Of a DNA stretch of 32,000 nucleotides, positions 207-28,632 are shown one piece after another. This DNA is from Trichlorobacter lovleyi SZ. Its GTDB lineage: Bacteria > Desulfobacterota > Desulfuromonadia > Geobacterales > Pseudopelobacteraceae. Both the position numbers and the translations under genes were made by a program. The stretch is from contig NC_010814.1 of NCBI RefSeq assembly GCF_000020385.1, positions 270,001 through 302,000 of the forward strand, in the 5' to 3' direction. The first letter of the stretch is position 1; each line of letters opens with the position of its first letter. The notes beneath the pieces are model-generated. The model was not told the DNA's origin. It saw nothing but the letters and a program-made list of their open reading frames with translations, and made no database searches.

Positions 207-775
207 ATTGCACATCCCTGGGAATTTTTGTGGACATTATGGCCTACATTATTCCCAGAGTCTAGATAAAATATTGCTTTTTGAGATAAATAATGTTTCA
301 TAATCAAAGGCATTTTAGCCTTACTGTGGGAAAGTTATTATGGATATTGAGGAAAATGTCGAAAGAACAGTCGTACGTGAAAAGTGAAATGCTCCGTTGG
401 CAAAATTTATAATACCATCGTACTGAATTATCGCGTCTTACTGTTTGCAGTGATTTTATTCTGCCAGAACGCAAAGTTTGTTTTCGGCATCTTTGATTTT
501 ATACATCCATCGAGATGGTGCCAAAAACAGCCATGCACGAAAATGACGGTCTTGTATTTTGGAGGTACGATATCGGGTTTTCCGGGGAGGTCTTTGCAGT
601 GTAATCTAAAACCTGCGAAATAAAGAGCAGATCTAAACAGAAGCAGTTCAGGAGTAGTCTCTTATGTCCTAACTTGGCTCGTCATTCGGCTTTTCTGGGC
701 TGAAGGATTTGTTGCATAAAGGTTTATTACTAACTATGGCGGATTTATCGTGACTTAGATGTATGATCCTATAAG

Positions 776-2380
776 TCAATTGCGACGAAGCCATTCAGAT
801 TCGTCCAGACCTACACGAGCAAGATTTGCCGCAAAATTATTAGCAATCCTTTGGGCGTGCGACTCTTTTAGATCGAGAATCCATTTAAATTTTATTTCAT
901 CATTTGGCCCACCGATAAAATAGTAATAATCATCTTCTTTTTGAGCCTGCACAATCCCTGTGTCCTCAAAGGGAGAAAATTCTATGATTTCCAGAGCGTG
1001 ACATTCTTTATAGCAAGTAGATAGAGGGACATAGCCTTGCAATTCATTCTTTACTAACACATCAAAATTCTGGCCATCTTTCTCCATGGGGAGAAATAGA
1101 AATTTTCTATGCGTTCCTGCCGCAATTCGAACACTGTCACATTTCTGTTGAATGCATAGTAGATAATTTTCATTTTTCTTGACCACAACACCGAGGGAGA
1201 GAGATGGGCGTTGCGACGTAGATAAAAAATTTCTTTTATGATGAGTCAATATTGAAAACTCTTCATCGCAATCAGCATTGGTGAAGTTATGAGGTCTAAA
1301 TGATTCGCAGGAATATTTCTTCAAACGGCGGCGCTCAAAGTTTTTAATATCATCTTCACTTAAGATAGCTTTACCTGAGTTGTCTACCTCACTATTTAAA
1401 AGTGCAATATATCCTTTGTTTTGCCATAACACCCTCTTATTGCTGTCAATATTTATTTTATGTTTGTCTGTAGCCTTTATTTCAGTATCTATAAACTCTT
1501 GGGATGATAACCAATCGCAAACTATATTACTGGAAACTTGCTGTGAAATATCTGCATTAGTAAGAATTGCGTTTAGTTGTCCACAAATGGTTTCCTTCAG
1601 AAGTTCTCCTGCATCCTCTGGCCAAGGTAGCATGGCTCGATGTGCAACGAAAGCTGGGTCCAGAGAAGGAGAAAAATCGGCTAATAATTTGTAGGTGTTG
1701 TTTCTAAGCTGTGTTAATGCATTCAAGCACGTATTGCTCAGTAGCCCTGCGGATACTTTTGCATATTCGATTGGTACCTCGTCGAGCAATCCCGAGTAGG
1801 ATTTAAGGCGCGGTTTCATTTCAGGCATGTGCATGAATCTTGGAGCTGCACTTTCTTTTGCCCAAATTGATATCCTGACGCCCCCAAAGGAAAGTGTAAA
1901 AGCATCTAGCGGTTTGAAGCATACAAAAGATTCGCTTAGTTGAGTCATGATTTCATTAAGATTGGTTTCGCCGGTGTAAATAAAAATCAATTTGAGCTGA
2001 TCTACTGGGACATCATTCTCAGCGGTGAGGCTCTTGATTATTTGTATTGCAAAATTGCCTCTGAAATCTGCTACATCATCTTCCTCTTCATTTAAATCTA
2101 CTCCAGTAGATGGGGAAATGTTTTTGATATCAATTCTCCAATCGAGAACAACAACGTCTGCCTTTCTTCCAATACTGACAACCATTGACAAATCATCCTG
2201 ATGTTCAGGTGCAAATGCAGTGGCCATGAGGCCTTTGGACGCAGATTCTCTAATTATTGGATTAACATCGAAGGGATGATCATCTTGCTCTGGGCAGTAG
2301 GCCTTATCATCTACAAAAAGAATGGACTGAATAAAATCTTGTGCGATGACTTCTGACATGGCCATGAATTCTCTACTCAT
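776..2380 (-). CDS. Receiver (REC)-like domain protein with uncharacterised ~340-aa C-terminal domain
   Basis: Track ORF is 776..2428. I prefer the ATG at 2380 (MSREF...): it overlaps the upstream stop as ATGAGTAG and follows GGTGGGGA, whereas 2428 lies 56 nt inside the upstream gene. The N-terminal ~170 aa shows the ordered receiver signature: ILFVDDK (acidic pair), DVVVLDWRI (Asp), LIFIYTGE (Thr), ISIWAKE (Lys). The spacers are longer than in CheY and include an acidic NEEEDDVADF insert. The C-terminal part has no motif I recognise. Confidence 0.7.
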   Translation of the reverse strand: MSREFMAMSEVIAQDFIQSILFVDDKAYCPEQDDHPFDVNPIIRESASKGLMATAFAPEHQDDLSMVVSIGRKADVVVLDWRIDIKNISPSTGVDLNEEEDDVADFRGNFAIQIIKSLTAENDVPVDQLKLIFIYTGETNLNEIMTQLSESFVCFKPLDAFTLSFGGVRISIWAKESAAPRFMHMPEMKPRLKSYSGLLDEVPIEYAKVSAGLLSNTCLNALTQLRNNTYKLLADFSPSLDPAFVAHRAMLPWPEDAGELLKETICGQLNAILTNADISQQVSSNIVCDWLSSQEFIDTEIKATDKHKINIDSNKRVLWQNKGYIALLNSEVDNSGKAILSEDDIKNFERRRLKKYSCESFRPHNFTNADCDEEFSILTHHKRNFLSTSQRPSLSLGVVVKKNENYLLCIQQKCDSVRIAAGTHRKFLFLPMEKDGQNFDVLVKNELQGYVPLSTCYKECHALEIIEFSPFEDTGIVQAQKEDDYYYFIGGPNDEIKFKWILDLKESHAQRIANNFAANLARVGLDESEWLRRN

Positions 2381-5357
2381 CAGAATCCCCACCTTCAAAT
2401 TTTTGTACACAGAATGTAACTGTTGCATTGTCGCGAGGATCAGCTACGAAGACCTCATATCCAATACTTTTAAGGACATCTCTTGTGATGTGTAGCCCCA
2501 TTCCTCTGCCGCGTCCATTTGGTGTCTCTTTTTTCGAATACCCTAACTCAAACACGCGCTCCTTAATAGATTCTTGTATAGGCGGTCCATTGTTGGAAAT
2601 GTAAAATCCCCCATCATCTGCATGTAATCTTATAACTTTATCAATATTATCATCTGTTTGCTTCAGCCAATAAACTGCGTTATCTACAATGTTGACGAAT
2701 ACGGGATATATTTTTGAACGACACGCAAAAATACTACGTAAGTTAAATCCTCTAGTGGCTTTAAGTTCGATATTGTGCCTTCGGAAGCGTTCCTTAAAAA
2801 TATCAAGAATAAAAGCAGATATATCTTTGTAGGGTATATTTTCCTGTTTCCTGTACATCCTTCTGTCAAGAGGTGTGAATAGAGACAAGTAGTTATCGAG
2901 GTGTTCAAAATTAGCGCGTAAATTTTTATATAATGATTCGTATTTTTCGTTTACATCACTTAACATCTTTAGGTCTTTTATGTTTTCTCTAATTGCCTGT
3001 GCGGTGCTGGTAAACTCATGGTGAATTACACCAACCGCAAGGCCTAGCTGACTCAGCTCGATATCAACATTAATTTGGCCTCGAAGTTCTTCCAGCTCGT
3101 TCTCTAGGGCATCATTAATATCTGCTTGGGTAATTATATGCCCGTCTTCGTCTTTGCTCCAATGAATGGCGCTTAGTTGTGACTGGACACTTTCAAGAAT
3201 TTGCTTATGTTGTCGCGCTTCAGCGGTGATCTTTTCTTCAATCTCAAGTCGTTTATTGAATAGCTCGTCATCTCCGAGCTTGGATATGTCGAGTTTTGCA
3301 AATTCAACTTTTATATTCTTCAGTGAGTCAGACAGTGTCACCATTACTTCTCTAGTCAAATCAATAACCTGTCGGTTAACAACTTTAATAACATCGTTGG
3401 TCAGTTTGGATTCAACACCTACTGATTTTTCTACATTGGCTGCGATATCATCGATAGCCTGCTGAAGTCGTACTCGTTTGTTTAGTTCAACCTTATATTC
3501 ATTTTTATAAGTGTCGATCAGGTTAGAAATTGTTTTTTTAGTGCATTGAAAATAATCTACATTAAACCTGCTCCACTCATCCTGATAAGCCTCCCACTCC
3601 TGTCGGAGGTCTTTGCTTAGAACAAAACCCTTTGGATTAGATATTCGATAGCTATCTTCAATACTGGTGACGGTTTTTAAAAGATGTAGTTCAAGATCAA
3701 GCATCTTTCTGGCTAATTCATCGTGATCATTTATTATGCTTAACGCCCGCAGTTCTTCCTCAGCTTTAGCATGTACTGTTTCTAACTCGCTTGGAATATT
3801 TATCTTATTATTGTTAAAGTCATTAAGAGCTTTTTGGAATTTTTGTTTTTTCCCAGATGCTTGACTGTCCCTTTTCTGCTTGGCTTTGAATGCTCGATCA
3901 AACTCCACCTTTTTTGCTGTCCACAATTCAGATTTCGGACCGCCATCTGCGCGGAAAAAGTCATTAGCGAGCTGTAGAAAAAAATTGATTAGAATATCTC
4001 TGAGCTGACGGTAAGCTTTGTTTTCGATAAAGCCTTCACGCCCCGCTTTTTCAGTAAGTCCTGAATTATCTAAATGTTTGATATCTATGTATCCCATCAT
4101 TAGCCGATGAGAGAAAAAATAATACTTTGCGCTTTTTGTTCTTCTTTTTTCTATATCAAGCCAATCGTAGTCACTATCACCATATGGCAATATGCGTATG
4201 CCGTCTCTATAGATGTATAAACCCCCAAGGATGTTCGTCTTTGAATGAAGAGGGCTCCAGTCATCTCGACTTAGTAGAGTGTCTTTTTCTGTTCCCTGAA
4301 GATAATGTACGGTTAAGTTAAATGGACCACAGAGTGTTTTTCTCCCGTTCGCACCATGCCAGAGAATTTCATGTTGATATGTCTCCTCGTTGTAGACTGT
4401 CACCTGCCCGGCAAACTGACCATATTCGTCGAATCTGCCACTGAAATGATGGTCCGCTTGAGCACAGTCATCAGGAGTAAAGAATATTGCTTGATCAATA
4501 AGATTATTGGATTTCGAGAGATCTTGATTTTTATAGTCTCTAAAGGCGGTATTAATCACATGTGGTGCTTCCGCATTCATTGTGTTTGTGAAGCCAAGAA
4601 GCATTTTCTGCATAGTAGAGATGTCGCCGGAATTATAATCCTTATCAAGAGAGCTCGCGAGACTCTCGTCCACAGGGGTGATGTAAAAATGGGTGCCAAT
4701 TGAATTATTGCTTAACAGAAGACCATCAAAGAAACTATCCCATTCTTTAGGATTAATTTTGAATGATTTCAGTTGCTCAAGAACTCTTTGGTAATCAATT
4801 TCATCAATTTTGTCTTCAGCGTTTACGAGGCTTTCAACCACCTCGCCGACTAGCTTTTGAACAAAATCCGAATCCGGGAAGCTGTTGTCTTCAAACTCAT
4901 AGACGGGAATATGAATATCTTCGAGAACTAAACCTGGTAGACCGAATATGTCCCAGTTTATAAATGATACGACAAGAGTCTGTGTCTCATTTTCTCTGAG
5001 AGCTCGTGTTAATATCAACACCTGTGGACCAATAGCAGAAATGGCCAAGCGGCCAATACCTTTTTCCCCCATGATAGGACGTTCAGGCTTGCTGAAAGGA
5101 TTTATTTGTGGTTTCTTTCCATACTTGCTGTCTGTTCCAATTGTAAGCCACTTCGACTCAAATTCAGCACGGGTCATTCCATATCCATTATCACGGATAA
5201 GAAGACAGTTTTTATGCCGAAAGTAATCAACTTCTACTTCGTCGGCATACGCATCGTAAGCATTTTTGAACAATTCACTTGTTGCTGTAGGAATTCCGGC
5301 GATTTGTTGGCGGCCGAGCATCTCCAAGGCACGAGCCGATGTTTTAAAATTAGCCAT
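2373..5357 (-). CDS. Dual GHKL protein: N-terminal MORC/Hsp90/MutL-like ATPase + coiled coil + C-terminal histidine-kinase (DHp+CA) core
   Basis: The track ORF starts at a TTG (5369). The ATG at 5357 (MANFKT...) has GAGG 6 nt upstream and overlaps the methyltransferase stop (ATGGCTAA). N-terminal Bergerat-fold motifs: ELFKNAYDA (ExxxNxxDA), IRDNGYGM (DxGxG), GEKGIGRLA (GxxGxG). Residues ~480-770 are K/E/L-rich and coiled-coil-like. C-terminal motifs: H-box-like LAVGVIHHEFTST (HHE codons at 3015..3023), N-box VFVNIVDNAVYWL, G1-like ISNNGPPI, F-box VFELGYS, G2 GRGRGMGLHI. Confidence 0.88.
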   Translation of the reverse strand: MANFKTSARALEMLGRQQIAGIPTATSELFKNAYDAYADEVEVDYFRHKNCLLIRDNGYGMTRAEFESKWLTIGTDSKYGKKPQINPFSKPERPIMGEKGIGRLAISAIGPQVLILTRALRENETQTLVVSFINWDIFGLPGLVLEDIHIPVYEFEDNSFPDSDFVQKLVGEVVESLVNAEDKIDEIDYQRVLEQLKSFKINPKEWDSFFDGLLLSNNSIGTHFYITPVDESLASSLDKDYNSGDISTMQKMLLGFTNTMNAEAPHVINTAFRDYKNQDLSKSNNLIDQAIFFTPDDCAQADHHFSGRFDEYGQFAGQVTVYNEETYQHEILWHGANGRKTLCGPFNLTVHYLQGTEKDTLLSRDDWSPLHSKTNILGGLYIYRDGIRILPYGDSDYDWLDIEKRRTKSAKYYFFSHRLMMGYIDIKHLDNSGLTEKAGREGFIENKAYRQLRDILINFFLQLANDFFRADGGPKSELWTAKKVEFDRAFKAKQKRDSQASGKKQKFQKALNDFNNNKINIPSELETVHAKAEEELRALSIINDHDELARKMLDLELHLLKTVTSIEDSYRISNPKGFVLSKDLRQEWEAYQDEWSRFNVDYFQCTKKTISNLIDTYKNEYKVELNKRVRLQQAIDDIAANVEKSVGVESKLTNDVIKVVNRQVIDLTREVMVTLSDSLKNIKVEFAKLDISKLGDDELFNKRLEIEEKITAEARQHKQILESVQSQLSAIHWSKDEDGHIITQADINDALENELEELRGQINVDIELSQLGLAVGVIHHEFTSTAQAIRENIKDLKMLSDVNEKYESLYKNLRANFEHLDNYLSLFTPLDRRMYRKQENIPYKDISAFILDIFKERFRRHNIELKATRGFNLRSIFACRSKIYPVFVNIVDNAVYWLKQTDDNIDKVIRLHADDGGFYISNNGPPIQESIKERVFELGYSKKETPNGRGRGMGLHITRDVLKSIGYEVFVADPRDNATVTFCVQKFEGGDSDE

Positions 5358-6477
5358 GAATTGCCTCAATGTGTTTTATGAATTGTTTGCCCATCGCAAA
5401 GGCAAGGTCAACAGGTACAGCATTTCCTATTTGTCTTGCCATAGAATTCAGATTTCCAGTGAACTCAAAGGTATCATCAAATCCCTGAAGTCGCGCCGCT
5501 TCTCTGACGCTTATTGCTCTGTCCTGTACAGGGTGACCGAACCTTCCGTTCGAATAACTGATACACCGTGTTGTTAGGCCTGTCGCCGGTTTTTTCCACC
5601 ATAAGCGTCCATAACAATCAGTATGTCCAGAATGGGTTGTACCGTCTTCATTTGTGCGAGTGTAACACTCTGGCCAGAGTGCCCTCGGCCAGTTATTACG
5701 ACCCCCACCATCATGAGTGGATGCTTTGATTCTTTCTAAGTTGATTTCCGACAACATGGCGGCGCGATGATTCAGTACATTATTTCCAGCATAACTCTCG
5801 CCGGCAGTAATAGCAGGAAGATCAGCTATTGCATCGTATACGGTTTTGTATGGGGTATCAGAGTCTTTCCCATGAGTAGGTTCTGGAATGGATATTTCTC
5901 CGTGCCTGCTCGCCAATAGAACAAAACGCCGACGTAGCTGAGGCGCTCCGTAATCTTGTGCAGCAACTACTCCATAGGCAATTTGGTAATTCAGTTTATG
6001 CAGAAGTTCTTCGAACGCAGGGAATGGACCATGCTTGTGGTTGGGAACTTTTTGCAGTCCGGGGACATTTTCCACAAATACAAAATCCGGCTCGCACTCT
6101 TTTACGATGGTGCCAAAATATGTTAATAGATCTTTACGCTCGTCCTGTTTAGGACTTTCCGTATTTTGCTTGGTGAAAGGCTGGCAGGGAGCACAGCCGC
6201 AGAAAAGTTTGTAACTGTCCTTATACTTGTCAAGCGTATGCTGAAAATCGAGAACGGTAAGTTTTTTAATGCTTTTATCGCAAAAATCTGTAGACGGAAA
6301 ATTTTTGGTAAAGGTGTTCTTTGCATCCTTATCAACGTCAAGTGCAAACGCAATATCCATTCCAGCTTTCTGAAAGCCTCTACTTGTTCCTCCACAACCG
6401 CAGAAGAAGTCGAAAACAGATATGTTTTTTTTATCATGATTTATCATAACTGTCCCATCGCAATGATGTCCATCCAT
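5350..6477 (-). CDS. dcm: DNA (cytosine-5)-methyltransferase
   Basis: All canonical C5-MTase motifs are present in order: I FDFFCGCGGTSRGF (FxGxG), IV GCAPCQPFT (PCQ catalytic Cys), VI FVFVENVPGL (ENV), VIII QLRRRFVLLAS (QxRxR), IX REAARLQGFDD, X GNAVPV. The start could also be the internal Met at 6447 (MINHDKK); neither start has a strong SD. Confidence 0.95.
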   Translation of the reverse strand: MDGHHCDGTVMINHDKKNISVFDFFCGCGGTSRGFQKAGMDIAFALDVDKDAKNTFTKNFPSTDFCDKSIKKLTVLDFQHTLDKYKDSYKLFCGCAPCQPFTKQNTESPKQDERKDLLTYFGTIVKECEPDFVFVENVPGLQKVPNHKHGPFPAFEELLHKLNYQIAYGVVAAQDYGAPQLRRRFVLLASRHGEISIPEPTHGKDSDTPYKTVYDAIADLPAITAGESYAGNNVLNHRAAMLSEINLERIKASTHDGGGRNNWPRALWPECYTRTNEDGTTHSGHTDCYGRLWWKKPATGLTTRCISYSNGRFGHPVQDRAISVREAARLQGFDDTFEFTGNLNSMARQIGNAVPVDLAFAMGKQFIKHIEAIHG

Positions 6478-6520
6478 GGCGCTGCCTTTGATACTTTTAT
6501 TGATGTAAAAAAATCCTCAC

Positions 6521-6549
6521 AATATAAAAAATAGTCAATCAAATAACAA
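6521..6549 (-). promoter_or_regulatory. Candidate sigma70-type promoter for the methyltransferase operon
   Basis: On the minus strand: TTGTTA (6549..6544), a 17-nt spacer, then TATATT (6526..6521), ~45 nt upstream of the ATG at 6477. The region is AT-rich, so chance matches are likely. Confidence 0.25.
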
Positions 6550-6583
6550 AGCCGCCCGTCAGCAAAAAACTGAAGCAGGCGGC
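6541..6583 (-). terminator. Candidate Rho-independent terminator (minus strand) upstream of the methyltransferase operon
   Basis: The minus strand reads GCCGCC-TG-CTTCAG-TTTTTTG-CTGACG-GGCGGC followed by TTTGTTATTTG. That gives two 6-bp stem segments (one mismatch, small internal loop) plus a T-rich tail. It would insulate the cargo operon from read-through coming from the tra side. Confidence 0.35.
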
Positions 6584-6809
6584 AAGATGTATAAATAAAG
6601 TTTTTTGAAGGGCACAGAGCCTACCGCCCACTGCCTTGCCCTTCATAAATGCACTAAAATACCATGTTAATACATCTTTTGGCCACAGCTGTCAATCGAT
6701 ATGCAAATGCAGAACATCCGTTTCGGAATTGACACGCATAACACACCATGTCCGACTAAGACAGGTTGCGCAACGCCTTGTAATAACTGTGTATTGCCAA
6801 TAAAATGAA

Positions 6810-6838
6810 TTGACAGAGAAATTTAAACTGGTCAAAAT
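6810..6838 (+). promoter_or_regulatory. Candidate promoter for the small plus-strand membrane-protein gene
   Basis: Perfect -35 TTGACA (6810..6815), 17-nt spacer, weak -10 CAAAAT (6833..6838). It sits ~50 nt upstream of the GTG at 6890. Confidence 0.3.
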
Positions 6839-6889
6839 ATATACATAATGCTCAGTCGAATTCAGACTGCTCATACAAGGAGGGATGAC

Positions 6890-7225
6890 GTGCCCACAAG
6901 TAAAATGAGAGCAATTATTATTTCTGCTGTCGGAACCGTTATTCCTTGCATTATTGCGGGAGCAATTGTCGGCATATTCTTTAGATCGTCATTCTGGTAC
7001 TGGACACTGGGAATCGCTGTTCTGGCGTTCCTCTATGCTTGCCTGGACCGAATACCCTTACGCCTGTTTACAGGAACAATGAAAGGGTTACCTCTGGGTG
7101 GGTTATTAAGGTATGGCTACGCAAGTACAGACAAAAGACCTGTACCCACTTTCTACGAAATCGAAGACCGAGAACGATTCAACATCTATTCTTACGATCA
7201 TTATTATGGTGATCGTGAAAAGTAA
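6890..7225 (+). CDS. Small membrane protein (2 predicted TM helices), unknown function
   Basis: Track ORF is 6848..7225. The GTG at 6890 follows a strong SD (AAGGAGGGATGAC-GTG), so I start it there (VPTSKMRAIIISAVGTVIPCIIAGAIVGIFF...). It has two hydrophobic segments and a charged C-terminal tail. This is the only convincing plus-strand gene in the window. Confidence 0.55.
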   Translation: MPTSKMRAIIISAVGTVIPCIIAGAIVGIFFRSSFWYWTLGIAVLAFLYACLDRIPLRLFTGTMKGLPLGGLLRYGYASTDKRPVPTFYEIEDRERFNIYSYDHYYGDREK

Positions 7226-7527
7226 TCCCATGCGCCTTTAGCTTTCAGCACTTCATCTCTTCGGAGAGTTATAGATCCCCTATATTCAGGAATTAACTCA
7301 TATGGTGATACGGTGTAGAAATAAATGCTGGTACCCTCAGCATTCTCGAAATGTTCAAGGATGGCTCCCGGAAGAGCAACCTCATTCCCTTTGACTGTTA
7401 ATATAGCGCCGAAATCTTTGAGACTTACTTCTACGTCTGTATCACTCAAAGATTCAGGAACTGTAAAATCATCTTGCATCAAACATATGATGCCATCTGA
7501 AACAGGTATCAAACGTTCGACTATCAT
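7204..7527 (-). CDS. Hypothetical soluble acidic protein, last gene of the tra operon
   Basis: The ATG at 7527 follows GGGGGAGA and lies 3 nt after the traG stop (AGA TAG CCA ATG). 107 aa, no TM segment or signal peptide, no recognisable motif. Confidence 0.6.
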   Translation of the reverse strand: MIVERLIPVSDGIICLMQDDFTVPESLSDTDVEVSLKDFGAILTVKGNEVALPGAILEHFENAEGTSIYFYTVSPYELIPEYRGSITLRRDEVLKAKGAWDYFSRSP

Positions 7528-7530
7528 TGG

Positions 7531-10500
7531 CTATCTCCCCCTTCTAGCAGCTGGTGGCCCACCGGATTTTGGCAAATTGCTTGACTTGCTCTGGTGCTGC
7601 AGAATTTTTGATGTACGTTGGACTTCCTGTTGAACATCTCTGGCTTTATCTGCTTTTACCCTCTCTACAGACCTGACAACTTGGGCTTCTTCACGGACAG
7701 ATTCTTTCGCTGCACGTTCTCTTCTTTCCGCCATCTTTAAGTTTGGCCCTACGACTCCTTCTACATCTCTGACTACTCCCGCCGTCTCATGCAGCGCACC
7801 CTGCCCAACAGCAATCATAGTGGCAGCCGTGCCGGCATCAATTGATCGCCCATCAGTGAATTCCTGGGTAGCTGCACTCCCAGCAAGATTCTGCTTGGAT
7901 TCTACCCTCGTTCCAACCACCTGCGAATTCGAATAATCCGCCTTGACCCCGCCATCGGCACGGACACTCCCGGTAATTCCACCACCAGACCTGGTACTGA
8001 CAACCGCCGCTCCCTGTTGTGACGACTGAACAAACTGATCCTCTGTGATTTCGGAACGCTGCCCGGCAATAAGATTCCCGCTCTTGTCCATTTTGCCCTG
8101 AACCTGGGAGTAGTGCAGGTTGCCATCCTTGTCCTTGGCGTACATAAGGACATTACCATCAAGCCCGTTCGAGAATGAACCGCCGACTACCTCCATATTA
8201 CCGGTTTTCTCATTCTTGGCGTAATACCAGTCCCCATTGACCATCATCTGTTTGCCACCAGCCTGGATCATGTAGCTGCCGGACTTCCGCGAGACATTCA
8301 GGGACTGGTTTTCGTAGCCGGTCTTGATAAAATCACCAACTGTTTTGCGCAGCCCCTTGTCTGTGGTCGATACGTTCCGGTCCAGGCGCTCGATATCAGT
8401 TCCGCTCTTGCTCTGACCAAGATCGAACTTCTGCACCCGACCACCTTGATCAATAGCAAACGACGCGAGATTGCCGTTCCGGTCGTAATCTGCCTTGTAG
8501 TCGAAGGCCTGACCAGACAGTTTGGCGACATGGGCGGCGGCACTTTGGAATCCGGCAGCACGGAGTTGCTTTTGCATTTCAAGAGCCTGCTCCTTGTCTC
8601 CCTTGGCAACGGTACCTGAATTAGACGAATTGACTATCCCGCCATCCATGCCGACATTGACAGCGCTCTTGCCGTCAGATGTCGTGAAGTTGATGTTCTG
8701 CCCCTCCATCGCCTTCTGCACCTCGGCAAAGCCCCGTTCGGTCAGGTGGCCGTTCTGATACATCTCCGGATCGTTCTTGAGTTGCGGAGCAATCTTGCCT
8801 ACCATTTGATCCGCTGCTGCGTGGACCAGCTGATTGCGGGCGATCCTCCCTGAAACATCATTGCTGGTGAGCTGCTGGTAGTTCTCGTAGCCACCCCCTG
8901 CATAAATTCCCTGGATCTTGCCACCGGTTTCCGTTGCCAAAACATGACCAGCTTCTGTACCGGCAGCAACCGGTCCACCCATCTGATTTGAGAGGCCGGT
9001 TACCTCTGAAGCATGCTTGCTCTGTTGGAACTGTGCATTCATCTGCATGAGCTGTCCGGAAGAGATCCCGTATTTATCGGCAATCTTGTTTACCGCATCG
9101 GCATTGGCAAAATCCCCAAGGGCCGTTACCTCAGAACGCATGGCATGGAAATCTCGCCAGTTTCCGCTGAAACCCAATGACCTGGCAGCGGCATAAGCAC
9201 CCATCTCCCCCTGCAATTGTCCGACACTCTTATTCATGTTAGCAGTCAAGAAGTCAGAGTAGTTTTCACCGGAACCAAAGACATTTGCCAAGGCCCGGTC
9301 ATTGGCAACTCCCATCTTGGCAAAGGCGAGAGTGTTGCCACCATAACTGCCTGAAACAACATCCTTGGTTGCAGCAGACTTGTCGAGTCCTAACCGGCCA
9401 TCAAAGGATTTCAGCTCGTAGGCTGATGACAGACCACCTTCCCGCATGGCCCTGCCGCTACCACCGAAACCGATTGATCTGCCAATCTCGCTATCAGCAG
9501 ATATTCTGCTCGAAAAATCCATCCCGAAGTCCCGGATCATATCACTCGACGCAGTAGTCTTAGCCGACATCCCGACCAGCGATTGCGCCTGTCTCGCCTG
9601 GAAGCTGTGCTCGTTGCTCCATGCCTGCGTCGGCATGGCTGTCACGTTACGCTGCATGGCTGATGCTCTGCCGGCTGGATCTTCCACCTCATGTGCCGCC
9701 CGGGTACCTGCTGACTGCACCTGATTGACCATCCCCCCGGCCATCATTGCCATAGCGTGCCCGCCGAACCGAATCAACATCCCGGTAATAACTGTAGCCA
9801 GCATCATCCCACTCATCCGGAGTGTGCCGAACATCCCGAGGATCTTCACCGTTTGATCGGGGAAGAAGTAGAGCGCATCCATGCCGAGCTTGTTCTGCCG
9901 CACCATCTCATAGGCCCGATTGGCATAGTCCACGGCAAATTGGTGAACTATGGCATCAGTGACACCCCAGGCAGTGAGCCAAATGAAGAAGCCAGCGATG
10001 ATGCCCACGGCTTTGCTGATCAGTGGCGTGGGAATGAAGAGCGCAAGGAACGGCAACAAACCAACTGCAATGGCCGTGAGTGCCGCCTTCAGGATCGGCA
10101 GCCATTCGTTGGCTGATTTCATAGCCCCGGAGGCGTTGAGCAGGAACTGATAGTTGGTGGCACCGGATGCGTTGCCACTGCGGAAAATCTCCTCCAGCCT
10201 CTGGGAGACGTAGGCCTGTTTCAGAAAGTCATCAATGCTCGCTGCACCAAGACCAGTTCCAGTATTGACGTTATTCAGAACCGTCTTGCACTGAGTCAGA
10301 GCAGCGGCATCAGTAACATCGTAACCAAGATTGGCGCACACCGATTCAATATTCTTCCCCAAATTGGCCGGGGTAAGCGCTGCCTTGATGTTGGTCCAGG
10401 AGTCAGTACAGGTAAGCGCTTGGCCCTGCGGGTTGGCGGCATTGAAATATACCGTCCAGATGGCCGGGTTGACCGCCTTGTCCAGGGAGCCAACAAAGTT

Positions 10501-11148
10501 GGTGGTAGTCTTGCGCAATTCATCCACCGTAAGGTTGGCATTGGGATTCATCAGTGCGTAGGAAACGCAATCCTTGACGTATCTCCGCATAGAAGCGTCC
10601 AGATTGCTGTCCACTGCTGACAGGGGAATGCTGGTGAGTTGAGCGAGACCCAGGAATCCTTTCCCACCGGCCTGCGTCTGGTAATTAAGGGGATCTCCGG
10701 CAGTAGTTACGATATCCACCAGGCCCCGCTCGATCTTGTTCAGGATACCGGCCACTGCCACAACGCCGTCAGGTATTCCGCCTACCGCCTGGTTCTTATT
10801 GAAGACCGGATCATAGACATGGATAGTCCCTTTGGGGACGACCAAGGCGAGATAGACCATGACGCCGATCAAAGTCGGCACGATCCAGGTCATGACGGAG
10901 CCGTTGGCTGTTCCCAGAGACTTTGCAAAGACCGTCACCCCGCCAAAGAAGAGCCCGGCGGTGATGACCACGAAATAGAGCGACTTGTAGGCGTTGTCGC
11001 CGAAGATCAGTGCCAGCTTACCGAAGGCATTCACGACGGCATCGTGGCCTCCCCAGACGTAGAACTCCATGTCCAGAGCCAAAGCCATGGTTGGGATGAG
11101 CACCAAGAGTGCCGTAAGAACGAGCCTAGATACTGTCCGTATCGACAT
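7531..11148 (-). CDS. traG: F-type conjugative mating-pair stabilisation / pilus assembly protein TraG
   Basis: 1205 aa with AGGAG upstream of the ATG. The N-terminal ~480 aa is polytopic membrane (ALDMEFYVWGGHDAVVNAFGKLALIFG..., several TM helices), as in the TraG_N domain of F TraG. It is followed by a long G/S/A/N/Q-rich periplasmic region. It occupies the terminal position of the operon, as in F-like systems. Confidence 0.88.
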   Translation of the reverse strand: MSIRTVSRLVLTALLVLIPTMALALDMEFYVWGGHDAVVNAFGKLALIFGDNAYKSLYFVVITAGLFFGGVTVFAKSLGTANGSVMTWIVPTLIGVMVYLALVVPKGTIHVYDPVFNKNQAVGGIPDGVVAVAGILNKIERGLVDIVTTAGDPLNYQTQAGGKGFLGLAQLTSIPLSAVDSNLDASMRRYVKDCVSYALMNPNANLTVDELRKTTTNFVGSLDKAVNPAIWTVYFNAANPQGQALTCTDSWTNIKAALTPANLGKNIESVCANLGYDVTDAAALTQCKTVLNNVNTGTGLGAASIDDFLKQAYVSQRLEEIFRSGNASGATNYQFLLNASGAMKSANEWLPILKAALTAIAVGLLPFLALFIPTPLISKAVGIIAGFFIWLTAWGVTDAIVHQFAVDYANRAYEMVRQNKLGMDALYFFPDQTVKILGMFGTLRMSGMMLATVITGMLIRFGGHAMAMMAGGMVNQVQSAGTRAAHEVEDPAGRASAMQRNVTAMPTQAWSNEHSFQARQAQSLVGMSAKTTASSDMIRDFGMDFSSRISADSEIGRSIGFGGSGRAMREGGLSSAYELKSFDGRLGLDKSAATKDVVSGSYGGNTLAFAKMGVANDRALANVFGSGENYSDFLTANMNKSVGQLQGEMGAYAAARSLGFSGNWRDFHAMRSEVTALGDFANADAVNKIADKYGISSGQLMQMNAQFQQSKHASEVTGLSNQMGGPVAAGTEAGHVLATETGGKIQGIYAGGGYENYQQLTSNDVSGRIARNQLVHAAADQMVGKIAPQLKNDPEMYQNGHLTERGFAEVQKAMEGQNINFTTSDGKSAVNVGMDGGIVNSSNSGTVAKGDKEQALEMQKQLRAAGFQSAAAHVAKLSGQAFDYKADYDRNGNLASFAIDQGGRVQKFDLGQSKSGTDIERLDRNVSTTDKGLRKTVGDFIKTGYENQSLNVSRKSGSYMIQAGGKQMMVNGDWYYAKNEKTGNMEVVGGSFSNGLDGNVLMYAKDKDGNLHYSQVQGKMDKSGNLIAGQRSEITEDQFVQSSQQGAAVVSTRSGGGITGSVRADGGVKADYSNSQVVGTRVESKQNLAGSAATQEFTDGRSIDAGTAATMIAVGQGALHETAGVVRDVEGVVGPNLKMAERRERAAKESVREEAQVVRSVERVKADKARDVQQEVQRTSKILQHQSKSSNLPKSGGPPAARRGR

Positions 11149-15463: not shown

Positions 15464-16116
15464 GGGGTTCCTTTCCTGTTTTGTGACGATCTGGCCGCTG
15501 CCTTTGTCTTACCAACCGGCAGCGCCACTTCAGTTATCTCCATCAAACGTCCCTTCTGTTTGATGACCGATGGCACGGCCTGCAGTTTCAGTCGTTCGAT
15601 TATCTTCCGGTCGGCATAGAACAATGGACGGCTGATCCGCTTCGATACGGCCCCGAAACTCCCCTCGGTCAGGAGGAGCGTTACATCGAGTCGCTTGTCA
15701 TATTCGGAGGCAGCAAACCACTTCACCTGATCCGGGTCAGTGCCGTTGATGACAACCAGCGTTTTCGGATAGGTCACGTAATCGAGCGGGTTGAAGGTGT
15801 AACCCTTGGGGTAAAGAATCCCTCCCTTGCCGTCTGGTACGTCGATCTCAGTGGCATAGGTCATGTCAACCGGGAAGCTCCGGTTCCGCATTGCTCGCGG
15901 CAGACTCGCCTTGTCCGGTGGTCCCTGGTAATTCTCGATCTTGCGCTTGTCCAGCACCTTGTTCCAGTCCACTTGCCGGGCCCGTTCTTCGATCTCGGCC
16001 AGGGCATCCCGCTCCGTGATTCGGTACGTGGTTCCGTAAGTACCAATCACCTTGGCTTGCGCCGACGAAATACCAAGCACCAGCGCTATCACTGCCAATC
16101 CTGTGCGCCTGATCAT
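15460..16116 (-). CDS. traW: F-type pilus assembly protein TraW
   Basis: 218 aa with signal peptide ...ISSAQA. Matches F TraW blocks: FNPLDYVTYPKTLVVINGTDPDQVKWF (F: MNPLQYVPFNQTLYFINGDDPAQVAWM) and LLLTEGSFGAVSKRISRPLFYAD (F: IILVQGSIPEMQKSLDSRVYFDQ). ATGA overlap with the traN stop. Confidence 0.9.
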   Translation of the reverse strand: MIRRTGLAVIALVLGISSAQAKVIGTYGTTYRITERDALAEIEERARQVDWNKVLDKRKIENYQGPPDKASLPRAMRNRSFPVDMTYATEIDVPDGKGGILYPKGYTFNPLDYVTYPKTLVVINGTDPDQVKWFAASEYDKRLDVTLLLTEGSFGAVSKRISRPLFYADRKIIERLKLQAVPSVIKQKGRLMEITEVALPVGKTKAAARSSQNRKGTP

Positions 16117-19100
16117 TTCGGCGTCGCCTGGTACTTGTTCTGGATGTTTTGCATGATGGTCTGTTGTGAACCATCAATCTTGGTAGCAAGATCCTTCTGT
16201 ACGTCTTCGAAGTATTCCGAAAGATCGATCCTCGAAAAATCCAGTGCCTGGAATTCGTCTGGCGTAAAGCCGCGGCAGTTGGGTGCTTCTGGTACACCCC
16301 AGCCGCCGTTCGGCTGAAATGATTGCAGTTGCGGTCTCCCTTGTTCATGTATGATCCTCGCCATTTTCGAGTTGAAGCAGCAGAAACTCTTGGCCTTCTG
16401 CACACATCCCACCAACGGCCATTTCTTCTGGCAGTAGTCCCCCACGTAGTGGCACTGTTTGCCTTCTTTCTGCATCCCGGTCTGAATGTCACCCTGATCA
16501 CATCCGCTTCCCATCAGCACTTTCATTACTACCAGGACGACTACTGCGATGATAATGGTGGCTGGGTTGAACAGGGCAGCGGCATATGCCTGCAATCCGG
16601 CTCCAAGGGCAGAAGCTCCTGTCGCTCCGCTGGCCATGGTTGCGTATGCACCTGTTGCTGCCGCTCCTGACAGGGTCGTGGTAGTTCCGGCAGCGGATAC
16701 AACTGTCATGGAGGTGACTGCACCGGTAGCAGTGGTAGATATCGCCGAAATCTGCGCAGCACCGGTCACAAGTGCGTTGCCGTAATAGGCGACCTGACCG
16801 ATTTCATAGGCCATCTGAATGCCCTGAACCGCTGTCGAGATGCTGCTGCCGGTATCTTCCGAAGCCACCTTGTCGCTCTCGCAGCAGTTGTTGAGGTACC
16901 CGACCGTCATACCGGGGGGACGGCAACGCGACGCTTTTCCGTTGAAGATGTAGATCTGGCCGAGACAATTGCCATTTGCATCTTTCGGCCCGTCATCCTG
17001 AAGCATTGACTCGTCGAGAGTGGTCGTCACCTCAGACCCGGGCGCTCCAGGATTGAAACAGGGGTTCGGGGAGCACTGCATCTTGTTCTGGTATTCCATG
17101 CAAGCATACTGAGTCCCGAGCGGACAGGTATTGAACCCCTCGAAGCAGCTGTCCTTCTGCGGATTGTAGATACCGGCGGCGCTGCAAATCGGCACCGCCT
17201 CGCACTTGCCGATGGGAAACGGTGTGTATGTTGTTCCCGCCGGGCAGTCGTGCTGGACTTCGGAAACGCACTTATCAAGCGTGGTTGAAAAAGTAGTGGT
17301 AGCGGCCTGGGAGAAGGTTGGGTCCTTGGGACAGGTAACAGGTTGAAGGCACTTGAAGTCAGCCTGACTCCAGCCGTAGGTGCCGCAATTGCGGGTCAGC
17401 GTGGCCTGGCAGACGTTGAGGCTCGCGTCATAAGCACCATTGGCGCATACCGGCGACGAGAAGCAGAGATTGGCGGCAGCATCAAAGGAGTAGGTGCCGC
17501 AGTCCCTGGTAATGGTTGCTTCGCAGAGGTCAGTTGTGGTGTTTAGGGTGCCGTTCGGACAGGAAGGCACAAGAATACACAGCCCGCTGGCGCTGTCATA
17601 GGTTCCCTGGGTGCAGGTTGGCGTATAAGCGGCCCAGCAGACATCCATGTTTGGGTCGAAGTTGCCGCCTGAACAGGTCGGGTTAGTTGCAGAAAGGCAC
17701 TGATTACCATTGATGAGAGCCTGACCGGCAGGACAGACCATCTGAGTCGAAGCCATCGTGAATGCCCCGGATAACATCCAATCACTTGCCGGTGACCCAT
17801 CGGCACAATAACGATCCATGAAGTAGTAGCTGCAATTGCCGACGCTATCGCATTGCAACGCCGACAGAGCGTAACCGGTACTGGTCAGCTCGGTTCTTGC
17901 CAAGAGACTGAGGGGGGACTGAATCGTAATAGCGTCAGAGCCGAGGCAACAGTAATTTGCAGCAACATTCACCTGCCCCTGGGGGCCATTGGGGCAGGAG
18001 ATACTTACATTGCAGCAGGAGTCTGCATAAGGTGCGCAAAGAAACGATTGAGGACTGCAGGATAAAACCTGTTGTGCGCTGGCACCGGTGATGGCGTCAC
18101 ATTTGTTTGTGACCACATTGTACGTGGTGCCTGCCGGGCATTCGGGAGCTTTTTCGCAGCGCCCCCGGGAACTGTTATAGCTGTAGCCTCCCGGACAAGA
18201 TGGCACGAAGGGTTGGACGCAGAGATTGTACGAGGCGTTGTAGCTGCCATAGGTACAAATAGGCGACCGTTCGCACTTGCCTGTCGAACCGTTGTAGGCG
18301 TAGCCATTGGCAGTGTCGCAGACCGGCATCCATGCTTTTTCGCACCGATCTTTTGCCGCAATGAACGCTCCTCCGTCAGTGCATGTTGCCGACTTCACAC
18401 AACGGTCGTAGGTCTGACTGGCCGGGTTGGCGTCATAGGAATAGCCAACGGGACAATCGTTTTGAACCAGTTTCTCACAGCGGTCGGCAACCGGATTGAA
18501 GGTTCCGTTTTCCGGACAGGTCACTGCCTTGATGCATTTGTCGATACCAGAGTCCCAGGTGTAGCCGCTGCCGCACACGTTCTGGGCTGTGGCCTGACAC
18601 ATGTCACGAGTTGTCTCCAGAGTAGAGCCAGCCGGACAGACTGGTGCGGTAAAGGTTTCAACGCATTCCGTGGAACCGACCGGGCAGAATTGTCCTTGAG
18701 TCGTCTGAATGCAGTTGGCTGTTTCTCCCGGGTCACCGGCATAGCCGTTGTTATTCAGATCCTGACCGCACATGATGTTGTTGATGGCATTGGGATCAGG
18801 TGGTGGCGGGGGAGGTGGCGGCGGTGGCGGAGTGATCGTGCCGGGATCAATGTACGACAGGGCACAGTCGAGCTTGCCGGAAAATTCGACGATCTGTGAG
18901 CTTCTTGTCCCATCGAGACCGCTGGACCAAATCCCGTCACTACCCATGACGACTGCCTGCGGGTCCTGTCCGGTATAGGCGCCAGCAGCCGGCCACTTCG
19001 TGAATGGAAGTCCCGATCCGTCAATGGCGTTGAATCCGACAGGCCCGAACTCTTTCCAGGCGTCAATGTAGGTGCTCTTATCCGAGGTTGCTGTCCCCAG

Positions 19101-19487: not shown

Positions 19488-19492
19488 CTGGT

Positions 19493-27879: not shown

Positions 27880-28632
27880 TCAGTGTGTTTGCGGCTTGCT
27901 CACCTCCTTTCCCTTGTCCAGCAATCCGGTTATCCGTTGGATGTCTGCACCATTCACGTGAGCACCTTCGATCCAGAGTGCCGGTGTTCCTCGTACGCCA
28001 AGCCCAGCCGCAATCTTCTCCATCTCCTCCAGTTGCTGTTGCTGTGCGCCATCGACTATGGAGATAGGTTTCCCGTCCAGCACTCCCTCGAATACCTCAT
28101 GGAATGCCTTGTCCCTGTCAGATTGCGACAGAATGTAGCGGGCCTTTTTCTCTGCGTCGGGATGTATCCTGCGTAGCGGGACGAAATAGACGTAACGGGT
28201 CACGTCAGTTCGCTTCGAGAGGAAGTTGTCAACTTTGCGGCAATAGGGGCAGTCAGGGTCGGTGAACTCGATGACCTTTTTCGGGCCGTTGCCTATTTTC
28301 AGGGCTTTATCAAGGGGGAGACTGTTGATTCGTTCTGCAACAACCTTCTCCCGCATCTCGGCTGTCAGGTTTTTGCCGTCTTTGGTCCAGATTTCACCAA
28401 AAAATAGGTATCCCTCGGGGCTGAAGTAAAATACCTGTTCGCCTGCGGTGATCTCATATAGGCCCTTGAGCGGCGATTCCCTGAAGCCATCCAATTTCAT
28501 ATTTGGAAAGGTCTTCATCAGGGTCTCTTTCTCCGTTCTCAGATTGTCGTTAGCCATAGAGAAACCCGCCGCAGTCACGATGAACATCATCAGCCCGCCG
28601 ACCATAAGTTTCTTGTTATTTGCGGTCTTCAC
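27880..28632 (-). CDS. dsbC: Periplasmic thiol:disulfide interchange protein DsbC
   Basis: The track ORF extends to 28704. The GTG at 28632 follows AAGGAGGAG and overlaps the upstream stop (GTGA). It has a signal peptide, a DsbC-like dimerisation region (PLKGLYEITAGEQVFYFSPEGYLFFGEIW), the thioredoxin active site FTDPDCPYCRK, and the cis-Pro region GVRGTPALWIEG. Confidence 0.9.
   Translation of the reverse strand: MKTANNKKLMVGGLMMFIVTAAGFSMANDNLRTEKETLMKTFPNMKLDGFRESPLKGLYEITAGEQVFYFSPEGYLFFGEIWTKDGKNLTAEMREKVVAERINSLPLDKALKIGNGPKKVIEFTDPDCPYCRKVDNFLSKRTDVTRYVYFVPLRRIHPDAEKKARYILSQSDRDKAFHEVFEGVLDGKPISIVDGAQQQQLEEMEKIAAGLGVRGTPALWIEGAHVNGADIQRITGLLDKGKEVSKPQTH

Follow-up and report, generated by a model that had tools for sequence, protein, structure and literature searches.

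Organization of the cassette

The window, a stretch of 32,000 nucleotides from Trichlorobacter lovleyi SZ, contains a three-gene cassette on the minus strand in the order C5 DNA methylase, a protein combining a GHKL ATPase with a histidine kinase, and then a receiver protein, followed by a Vsr remnant. The genes overlap, and both cassette junctions consist of 8-nt ATGnnTAn overlaps, from which we take the cassette to be a single operon. It forms low-GC cargo beside TraG/TraN conjugation genes. No second receiver gene was found in the cassette and no nuclease gene was found beside it in the window.

The first gene encodes a C5 cytosine DNA methyltransferase (5350-6477, minus strand; PF00145, E 8.3e-61; MTase_II in PADLOC) with intact PCQ and ENV motifs. 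The second (2373-5369, minus strand; PF13589, PF19191 and PF02518) encodes the cognate kinase-like protein and probably starts at the ATG at 5357, as suggested by the junction sequence; the N terminus of the kinase is conserved in the family as MA.FKT. The kinase consists of an N-terminal GHKL ATPase (HATPase_c_3, paraMORC-like), a conserved middle region and coiled coil, a HEF_HK DHp domain, and a C-terminal HATPase_c domain. Its HEF_HK match (PF19191) has an E-value of 1.3e-27, and it carries an HHEF H-box (H784, nt 3018-3020), G-boxes and GHKL motifs, with further strongly conserved, unassigned motifs in residues 300-460, such as ADHH at residue 305. At its N terminus the protein is similar to the start of restriction enzymes of the BbrUII/HgiDII type (NF050001, E 1.5e-20), but this match covers only the GHKL part (residues 11-128). 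Similarly, the PADLOC match of the kinase is to the N terminus of REase_II only, and neither Pfam, PADLOC nor NCBIfam recognizes a nuclease domain in the protein.

Directly downstream of the kinase gene lies the last gene of the cassette (776-2380, minus strand), which encodes an RR-like protein of 534 residues followed by a stop codon. An N-terminal receiver is followed by about 350 residues (186-534), referred to here as the C-terminal module. The ATG at 2380 is the preferred start because it is preceded by a Shine-Dalgarno-like site (AAGGTGG), lies in an 8-nt overlap that takes in the upstream gene's stop codon, and coincides with the aligned N termini of homologues; a longer reading frame of 550 residues beginning at 2428 appears less likely. 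Sequence searches retrieved 144 homologues at E<=1e-3, most of them 520-570 residues long. Directly downstream of the RR-like gene, the remnant of a gene for the very-short-patch repair endonuclease Vsr (430-640, minus strand; PF03852, E 2.9e-16) preserves no more than the middle of the domain (profile positions 34-71 of 74).

By sequence, the protein belongs to the HEF_HK/Response_reg_2 pair described by Bellieny-Rabelo et al. 2021 (PMC8011034), as its ‘RR-like’ half, and hence to the published Response_reg_2 / RR-like OG_4 family. Since this family and its fixed HEF_HK kinase and C5 methylase partners have been reported, the gene is not in itself a discovery; it is a new member of a described family whose cassette is known only from sequence. 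The earlier study defined only the receiver and DHp domains, leaving the C-terminal module of the RR-like protein unanalysed, and proposed a generic regulatory role linked to restriction-modification (R-M) systems in a paper without experiments (PMC8011034). Our literature searches found no functional or experimental work on any member of the cassette.

The receiver domain

The original prediction placed a receiver-like domain at the N terminus on the basis of four short strings, which do occur in receiver order in the translation of 776-2380: FVDDK (residues 22-26), VVLDW (77-81), IYTGE (134-138) and IWAKE (172-176). Residues 1-185 (1826-2380, minus strand) match the Pfam family PF19192 (Response_reg_2) over profile positions 1-177 of 180 with an E-value of 3.6e-30 and a score of 105.9 bits, where the cut-off is 27, so that the assignment as a receiver domain is far above chance at the sequence level. 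Pattern of conservation, predicted fold and structural matches agree with it. The AF2 model (mean pLDDT 87.7) has a (βα)5 flavodoxin-like N-terminal domain in which β1 (19-23), α1 (39-48), β2 (52-56), α2 (61-73) and β3 (76-79) form the first half, and α3 (109-119), β4 (130-136), α4 (141-151), β5 (156-175) and α5 (176-182) the second. In Foldseek searches with the full-length model, the receiver domain 4dad was matched in the PDB at a probability of 0.99 and a viral receiver protein in BFVD at a probability of 1.00 (r.m.s.d. = 3.9). Thus, as had been proposed, the N terminus is a genuine receiver-type domain, and it falls in the CheY-like superfamily. The PF19192-type sequence is divergent, and a sequence profile retrieved no PDB receiver. 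When just the receiver domain was used to look for other architectures, in a search limited by its word index, two fragments were all that came back.

The residues of the phospho-acceptor pocket are strongly conserved across 129 diverse homologues. The acidic pair is formed by Asp 24 (99%) and Asp 25 (95%), the predicted phospho-acceptor is Asp 80 (100%; nt 2141-2143), and the pocket further contains Thr 136 (91%, the remainder being serine) and Lys 175 (98%). Directly after Asp 80, an acidic insertion (residues 82-107) contains the segment DLNEEEDDVADF at residues 95-106. This loop had been singled out in the original prediction; it is present, and it is modeled as disordered (pLDDT <50 at residues 90-104), but it is not a family feature. 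Among homologues, the loop after Asp 80 varies from 5 to 76 residues with a median of 8, and its net charge is -3 or lower in about half, so the acidic loop is restricted to some clades.

Layout and conservation of the C-terminal module

The C-terminal module is modeled mostly at pLDDT >90 in the context of the full-length protein, its polar positions are strongly conserved, and its charge is acidic to neutral overall. Among the homologues recovered, it is found only fused to a Response_reg_2-type receiver.

The module begins with a conserved helical subdomain (residues 186-295; 1496-1825, minus strand) whose helices are predicted at pLDDT >90 in the full-length model. Its conserved residues are Gly 212, Asn 216, Arg 226, Asn 228, Asp 241, His 247, Asp 256 and Trp 290. 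When the subdomain is modeled without the receiver, about residues 206-247 and 267-279 fall below pLDDT 50, and judging from the models it probably packs on the receiver domain. A variable insert follows (residues 296-365; 1286-1495, minus strand), which is slightly basic and the least conserved part of the module (column conservation 0.23-0.31). The conserved β-rich core (residues 366-505; 866-1285, minus strand), delineated by AF2 secondary structure, contains the motifs FSILTHHK, PxLxLG, YxxCIQQxCDSxR (Cys 409, Gln 411, Cys 414, Asp 415 and Arg 418), RxFLFLP (Arg 425) and WxxDLK (Lys 505).

Lastly, a C-terminal helix (779-865, minus strand) ends in R522-V-G-L-D-E-S-E-W-L-R-R533, the motif with the highest conservation in the family. 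Conservation reaches 0.75-1.00 at residues 522-532, where model confidence is low (pLDDT 43-50). We regard this tail, RVGLDESEWLRR, as a candidate docking element, whose partner may be the kinase, the methylase or another copy of the RR-like protein.

The remaining strings pointed out in the original prediction are also found in the translation (PRFMHMPEMK at 180-189, CIQQKCD at 409-415, CYKECH at 456-461 and ESHAQR...EWLRR at 506-533). The scattered cysteines to which it drew attention are of two kinds: Cys 409 and Cys 414 in CIQQKCD are 99-100% conserved in the family, whereas CYKECH is clade-specific. Family-wide conservation extends to Asp 241, His 247, Cys 409, Gln 411, Cys 414, Asp 415, Arg 418, Arg 425 and the C-terminal tail. 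From the alignment, Asp 241, His 247, Cys 409 and Cys 414 are candidate metal or catalytic ligands, being near-invariant, and may form a putative active or ligand site together with Gln 411, Asp 415, Arg 418, Arg 425 and Lys 505.

Searches for a known effector or output fold

The module had been described as free of any familiar effector motif, and this is borne out by searches of Pfam, NCBIfam, PADLOC, PDB sequences and Foldseek. Residues 186-534 have no match in Pfam, NCBIfam or PADLOC, and Pfam searches with the C-terminal modules of 27 family members at E<=10 gave no consistent family. Searches of PDB sequences, one using the protein itself and the others two profiles, returned noise only (glomulin, NMD3). 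With the full-length model, Foldseek gave only weak flavodoxin-like or receiver matches in the PDB and only receiver matches in BFVD, with none for the C-terminal module. A model of the module alone is of moderate quality (pLDDT 70), so a structural relative may have been missed; its best PDB match has an E-value of 0.068 at a probability of 0.06, with nothing at E<0.01. The β-rich core aligns with the MazF/CcdB-like structure 5cke_A below significance (E 0.68, probability 0.51, r.m.s.d. 6.5), and the TM-score of this non-significant match is 0.54 when normalized to the 101-residue target. The match of the core to 5cca in the PDB, at a probability of only 0.35, is likewise below significance, and Tudor-like Foldseek matches of the module are not significant either.

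Specific classes were considered and rejected. PD-(D/E)xK, HNH, PLD/HKD, GIY-YIG, TIR, SIR2 and HEPN domains have no profile, structural or conserved-motif match, and profile and structure searches gave no motif or fold match to a protease or membrane effector in residues 186-534. The same region shows no Pfam or Foldseek match to wHTH, LuxR HTH, AAA+/Fis, GGDEF or CheB methylesterase outputs; the plain DNA-binding output of an ordinary response regulator is thus not what Pfam or Foldseek find here. Motifs spotted by eye were discarded because their acidic or histidine partners are not conserved family-wide and because they disagree with the predicted secondary structure. These are a PLD-like H380-x-K382; a PD-(D/E)xK/RecB-like D503-x-K505 with a following helix containing Gln 510, of which only Lys 505 reaches 88%; and a caspase-like Q-x-C414 and a HEPN-like R226-N-N. 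One homologue (P0102) carries the JGI label ‘YutE/DUF86’, which Pfam did not reproduce.

Distribution and co-evolution of the cassette

A profile of the C-terminal module retrieves proteins that form about 1,600 clusters when grouped at 50% identity. The homologues come from Bacteroidota, Proteobacteria, Patescibacteria, Acidobacteriota, Actinomycetota and from several lineages of archaea, and among their neighbors are toxin-antitoxin, R-M and ATPase/nuclease systems. The closest relative is on a metagenomic contig (L001), with an RR-like protein 95% identical to that of the window. No near DNA match to the element bearing the cassette was found in the E. coli genomes, plasmids and phages searched. 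No member of the family was found in the phage collection, and 1 of 72,556 plasmids has one; this says nothing for or against a role in defence.

We surveyed the gene neighborhood in 75 species-representative genomes carrying the RR-like gene. The kinase gene adjoins it in all 75 loci, and the methylase gene is adjacent in 71; in the other four it is displaced but nearby, divergent, or frameshifted together with other cassette genes. None of the 75 loci has an intact kinase and RR-like gene without the methylase, whose presence wherever the pair is intact fits a protective role. An intact Vsr gene is found in 37 of the loci, 13 of which have it on the same strand immediately downstream. The only other recurring neighbors are a second methylase (14 loci), an AAA ATPase (12) and HNH_2 (10). 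HNH_2 was considered as a dedicated nuclease partner and rejected, as it occurs in those 10 loci only and is absent from the window; no other nuclease family recurs.

The pairwise identities of the kinase and RR-like protein co-vary (Spearman 0.86), and the methylase co-evolves loosely with both. In two loci (L016 and L037), the methylase is 74-76% identical to that of the window with an RR-like protein only 36-38% identical; as judged by these identities, the methylase is swapped between cassettes. Mean column conservation is 0.65 in the kinase, the highest of the three proteins, versus 0.47 in the RR-like protein.

A model for the cassette and its alternatives

The reading that we favor, to which we give about an even chance, is that the RR-like protein is the phosphorylation-gated effector of a low-GC cassette for R-M-like defence, which a conjugative element carries as cargo. 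The trio would act as a self-contained R-M-type defence or addiction module. The methylase, given its intact motifs and the linkage to Vsr, would mark host DNA, while the kinase would use its N-terminal, MORC-like GHKL ATPase clamp to sense a signal related to DNA, the simplest being incoming DNA that is unmodified. This signal would run through the coiled coil to the HEF_HK/HATPase_c core, which would autophosphorylate on His 784 and pass the phosphoryl group to Asp 80 of the receiver, a transfer suggested by the full conservation of catalytic residues on both sides and the tight co-evolution of the two proteins. Phosphorylation would then release or assemble the C-terminal module of about 350 residues, whose output, assigned by elimination, may be an attack on DNA or another growth-arresting activity.

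Judged from sequence, the module is the most likely seat of the restriction or toxic activity of the cassette. It is the best effector candidate by elimination because the kinase has no recognizable nuclease domain and no dedicated nuclease recurs, and its candidacy is further supported by its size, confident folding, conserved polar positions and occurrence only in fusion with this receiver. The original prediction of an effector in a conflict-type operon thus stands as far as the module is the best candidate for the output, but its toxicity and new fold are conjectural, and no catalytic motif was identified in it. That no known nuclease, NADase, protease or membrane-effector motif or fold was detected in it counts against the favored reading, and its acidic-to-neutral charge is not typical of DNA-binding proteins. 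With regards to R-M, the methylase is present and intact, but profile searches identify no nuclease, and the apparent swapping of methylases also counts against this reading, because the restriction side should match the sequence specificity of the methylase. A narrower proposal, that the C-terminal 350 residues are a new enzymatic effector fold gated by phosphorelay from a MORC-like DNA-sensing kinase, is tentative and somewhat less likely than not; such an enzyme is possibly metal- or thiol-dependent, built around the near-invariant Asp 241, His 247, Cys 409 and Cys 414.

The conserved tail invites a different reading, in which the module is a non-catalytic adaptor that, once phosphorylated, docks through the tail on the GHKL/S5 clamp of the kinase or on the methylase and switches on an activity there, for example MutL/MORC-like clamping, compaction, or nicking by the middle region of the kinase. 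Conservation peaks in the segment R522-R532 although model confidence there is low, which is frequent in docking motifs, and within the trio it is the kinase that shows the highest conservation, with its motifs in residues 300-460 and a BbrUII/HgiDII-like N terminus; moreover, paraMORC GHKL proteins have been predicted to serve R-M systems as motor or clamp subunits (PMC2292703). However, that likeness is confined to the GHKL part of a kinase with no detectable nuclease domain, and a well-folded module of 350 residues with near-invariant cysteines, histidine and aspartate exceeds the needs of an adaptor, so we regard this as rather unlikely. Somewhat harder to sustain is a true response regulator with a novel DNA- or RNA-binding output that controls the methylase, as an epigenetic switch or R-M controller. 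It would agree with the regulatory role suggested by the authors of PMC8011034, the HNH_2 nucleases near 10 of the 75 loci would be possible regulated targets there, and the slightly basic residues 296-365 diverge like a specificity element. Yet neither Pfam nor Foldseek finds a DNA-binding fold, whether HTH, wHTH or another, the module carries a net acidic charge, and the genes are translationally coupled in a single operon. Furthermore, since 65 of the 75 loci lack HNH_2 and no other nuclease family recurs, mostly only the methylase would be left to regulate.

Vsr accompanies C5 methylases generally, which counts against the least probable of the alternatives, one we consider very doubtful, namely that the genes serve 5-methylcytosine-linked DNA maintenance with Vsr and are not a conflict system at all, the GHKL protein being MutL-like and the module processing T:G mismatch intermediates or signaling damage. 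The 37 loci with Vsr, including the 13 with the gene directly downstream on the same strand, and the remnant in the window speak for it, as does the stimulation of Vsr by MutL in E. coli (PMC2292703). Nonetheless, half of the loci have no Vsr, and in the window Vsr has decayed while the trio is intact. The patchy, horizontally transferred spread over bacteria and archaea and the defence-island and mobile settings instead fit a conflict system.

What is at stake differs between these readings. If the module is an adaptor or regulator, interest moves to the kinase and the finding is an ordinary member of a described family. Should the trio be a defence system, as we favor, it would join two-component signaling with restriction-modification, both among the best-studied bacterial paradigms, and offer a tractable bacterial model for DNA reading by MORC-type GHKL ATPases; the orphan module would add a new effector domain whose on-switch, Asp 80, is defined, which makes it directly testable. 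A new enzymatic fold switched on by the kinase would make this the first R-M-type immune system gated by a two-component phosphorelay, spread across Bacteria and Archaea. The cassette is widespread and is absent from PADLOC 2.0.

Comparison with known systems

The closest counterpart is the HEF_HK/Response_reg_2 pair itself (PMC8011034), which shares with the window cassette the Pfam domains PF19191 and PF19192, the N-terminal HATPase_c_3 of the kinase, and the order methylase, HK-like, RR-like and Vsr. The architecture is identical, making the window gene a typical member.

Among characterized defence systems, Detocs also gates an immune effector by a His-Asp phosphorelay, using the kinase DtcA, the buffer receiver DtcB and the receiver-PNP effector DtcC (bioRxiv 10.1101/2023.01.24.525353). 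The window cassette resembles it in having, in a defence setting, a cytoplasmic histidine kinase and a receiver that is joined to an effector of non-transcriptional type, although here the effector is a candidate only. There is no sequence relationship, and the RR-like protein has no PADLOC match. The window cassette also lacks a buffer receiver protein, its effector is not a PNP nucleosidase, its kinase has a GHKL/MORC-like N terminus, and a DNA methylase is an obligate partner.

The MORC/paraMORC GHKL ATPases of R-M systems (PMC2292703), with which the GHKL-nuclease Shedu protein VcSduA (PMC12137116) and the BbrUII/HgiDII-type enzymes are grouped, share the N-terminal HATPase_c_3 domain and are likewise linked to cytosine methylases and Vsr. 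Their GHKL proteins are joined to recognizable nucleases or helicases or have these encoded next to them, whereas the GHKL part in the window is followed by a histidine-kinase core and has as its only partner a receiver protein with an orphan module. Finally, classical response regulators (OmpR/PhoB, NarL/LuxR, NtrC, CheB and PleD) have the same (βα)5 receiver with its acidic pocket, threonine and lysine, and, as here, a cognate kinase is encoded upstream. The window receiver differs in belonging to PF19192 and not PF00072, in its expanded loops, and in being joined to an output that matches none of the known ones.

Organization of the cassette

The receiver protein (RR) gene lies within a single open reading frame at 776-2428 on the minus strand. 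Its likely start is the ATG at 2380, since this codon has an AAGGTGG Shine-Dalgarno-like site upstream, forms an 8-nt overlap (ATGAGTAG) with the stop codon of the preceding gene and coincides with the starts of homologues. The resulting gene (776-2380) encodes a 534-residue protein, in whose translation all peptides quoted in the original prediction occur at the places and in the order given. It is the third and last of three overlapping minus-strand genes, preceded by a C5 cytosine DNA methylase (5350-6477; PF00145, E = 8.3e-61) with intact FxGxG, PCQ and ENV motifs, and by a kinase-like protein (HK; 2373-5369, 994/998 aa). HK has an N-terminal GHKL ATPase domain (PF13589), a HEF_HK DHp domain (PF19191) with its histidine at residue 784 in HHEF, and a C-terminal HATPase_c kinase domain. 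Its conserved N terminus and an 8-nt overlap with the methylase stop codon (ATGGCTAA) imply that it starts at ATG 5357, not TTG 5369. At both junctions (methylase/HK, 5350-5357; HK/RR, 2373-2380; minus strand) start and stop codons thus overlap by 8 nt in the pattern ATGnnTAn, which suggests that translation of all three genes is coupled.

Between its GHKL domain and coiled coil, HK carries strongly conserved motifs at residues ~300-460 (ADHHfxGxFDexGQF, GGLYiYxdxIRxLPYG and EKAGREGFIENkAY) that are covered by no Pfam family and could form a DNA-binding or catalytic site.

Directly downstream of RR, a gene for Vsr, the very-short-patch repair endonuclease, is reduced to a remnant (430-640, minus strand). 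With only Pfam positions 34-71 of 74 left, it is a pseudogene, unlike the intact methylase gene.

The N-terminal receiver domain

The N-terminal domain of RR is a receiver with a complete phospho-acceptor pocket, as originally proposed. Residues 16-177 match PF19192 (Response_reg_2) with 105.9 bits (E = 3.6e-30; cut-off 27 bits), and in the full-length AlphaFold2 model (73 input homologues; mean pLDDT 87.7, pTM 0.81) residues 1-182 form a (beta-alpha)5 domain. Foldseek matches this domain to the receiver 4dad (probability 0.99) and to a giant-virus receiver protein (probability 1.00, r.m.s.d. 3.9 Å over 136 columns). Conservation across 129 aligned homologues (about 25-55% identity) reaches 91-100% at D24/D25, D80, T136 and K175, and D75 and W81 are likewise invariant. 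The domain is nevertheless divergent, since the family sequence profile matched no receiver in the PDB. The acidic loop noted after the phospho-Asp strand is present and disordered in the model, but it is not a family-wide feature: the loop after D80 ranges from 5 to 76 residues (median 8) among homologues, and the acidic insertion is confined to some clades.

An orphan C-terminal module

In the full-length model the remainder of the protein (residues 186-534) consists of a helical subdomain (186-295), a poorly conserved insert (296-365), a beta-rich core (366-505) and a long C-terminal helix (506-533). Pfam, NCBIfam and PADLOC contain no family matching these ~350 residues, and a scan of 27 modules from homologues (E<=10) gave no consistently matching family. 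Sequence searches of the PDB with RR and two profiles returned only noise for the module. The structure search called for by the original prediction, run with Foldseek on the AlphaFold2 models, also found no relative: for the C-terminal-only model the top PDB match had E = 0.068 at probability 0.06, the only moderate-probability matches were non-significant ones to MazF-type toxins (0.51 and 0.35, E about 0.7), and BFVD yielded receiver matches only. The output module singled out earlier is indeed undescribed and has no detectable relatives in these resources.

The C-terminal-only model is weaker (pLDDT 70), with the loss centred on helices at residues ~206-247 and 267-279, which exceed 90 in the full-length model. 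As this drop occurs when the receiver is left out, the helical subdomain probably packs against it, although the shallower alignment may also contribute.

Across the 129 homologues, conserved polar residues include N216, R226, N228, D241 (100%), H247 (97%) and D256 in the helical subdomain, C409 (100%), Q411, C414 (99%), D415, R418 and R425 in the core, and also K505 and Q510. Among the scattered cysteines pointed out originally, C409 and C414 are therefore family features, whereas those of CYKECH are not kept. No other stretch of the protein is as well conserved as the tail R522-V-G-L-D-E-S-E529-W530-L-R532, though its pLDDT is only 43-50. The eye-catching HxK and DxK strings were rejected as motifs, as they are not kept across the family.

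A profile of the module searched against 1.84 billion proteins (E<=1e-3) matched 1,597 cluster representatives. In the best 150 of these it always lies at about residue 190-550 of a 510-620-residue protein, the shorter matches being truncations, so the module is known only as a fusion to this receiver. It is an orphan: well folded, conserved and restricted to this architecture.

Conservation of the trio

The comparison covered 80 related loci in GTDB species representatives from Bacteroidota, Proteobacteria, Patescibacteria, Acidobacteriota, Streptomyces, Methanosarcinales, Methanoperedens and one Asgard archaeon; 75 had sufficient upstream sequence for counts. HK adjoins RR in 75/75 and the methylase is adjacent in 71/75. 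It is inverted and downstream in locus L014, divergent with Vsr between in L084, and frameshifted along with other cassette genes in the long-read MAGs L070 and L081. Every one of these loci in which HK and RR are both intact also carries a methylase; the trio with a C5 methylase is obligate. Vsr is present in 37/75. The neighbours next in frequency are a second methylase in 14 loci, an AAA_15/21 ATPase in 12 and an HNH_2 nuclease in 10, so the core includes no dedicated nuclease.

Pairwise identities of HK and RR are tightly correlated (Spearman 0.86), and HK, with intact catalytic motifs, is the co-evolving cognate kinase. Co-variation of the methylase with its partners is loose (0.44-0.51; 0.44 with RR). 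The methylases of L016 and L037 share 74-76% identity with that of the window, while HK is 42-46% and RR 36-38% identical, indicating that the methylase module has been exchanged between otherwise divergent cassettes.

RR is split by a frameshift in L006, L052 and L061, and HK in L018 and L061; the methylase is intact where in view. Decay of RR or HK before the methylase is the order expected if the methylase is protective, in few cases, some of which may be assembly errors.

Genomic setting

G+C content is 38-45% in the cassette, 38-47% with its flanks (776-7500) and, after a sharp break, 50-57% in the remainder (7500-32000). This high-GC part encodes TraG_N (7531-11148), TraN-like (16113-19607), DsbC-like (27880-28704) and HipA (29514-30806) proteins and is the backbone of an integrative or conjugative element. 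Low G+C beside conjugation genes marks the cassette as acquired cargo on a conjugative element. No near DNA match was found in plasmid, phage and E. coli collections. The RR protein occurs on 1 of 72,556 plasmids and was not found in phage records; its homologues are surrounded by toxin-antitoxin, R-M and ATPase systems.

The ~1 kb between the methylase and TraG-like genes (6478-7530) holds only two small open reading frames without Pfam matches (6848-7225, plus; 7204-7527, minus) and presumably contains the cassette promoter. Consensus-like -35/-10 sites occur on the minus strand at 6549-6521 and 6472-6443. At the window end, a small XRE-type helix-turn-helix frame (1-206, minus; MSYSEALVRLKEARG...) runs off the sequence and may regulate a neighbouring cargo module.

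Possible function and relation to the published family

The reading to which we give roughly an even chance is that the trio acts as an R-M-like or addiction module. DNA would be sensed by HK through its GHKL end, and phosphotransfer to D80 would activate the C-terminal module as candidate effector. The latter assignment follows by elimination, because HK contains no recognisable nuclease and conservation extends to no further gene, and from the near-invariant Asp, His and Cys pattern. Were the activity to reside in the kinase protein itself, the RR module would be an adaptor, which we consider rather unlikely. A repair-linked function, with Vsr in about half of the loci, appears very improbable.

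For the R-M-like reading, no simple type II-like model accounts for the loose methylase coupling, which suggests that HK and RR read methylation status generically or via contact with the methylase, not through a sequence specificity of their own. Should the C-terminal module prove to be a phosphorylation-gated enzyme, its importance would rise sharply.

Bellieny-Rabelo et al. (2021; PMC8011034) found HK-like and RR-like genes linked in 91.6% of 644 regions, often with C5 methylases upstream and Vsr genes downstream, and linked the kinase with paraMORC ATPases. The only role they proposed was regulatory, and the RR-like C-terminal module was left out of their analysis; that RR is a true regulator seems unlikely to us. 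PADLOC 2.0 has no model for RR, and no later functional work on the family was found in the literature searched. The original observation is thus confirmed and its interpretation partly supported: the orphan output module is undescribed, but the gene as a whole is a typical member of this already described, experimentally untouched family.
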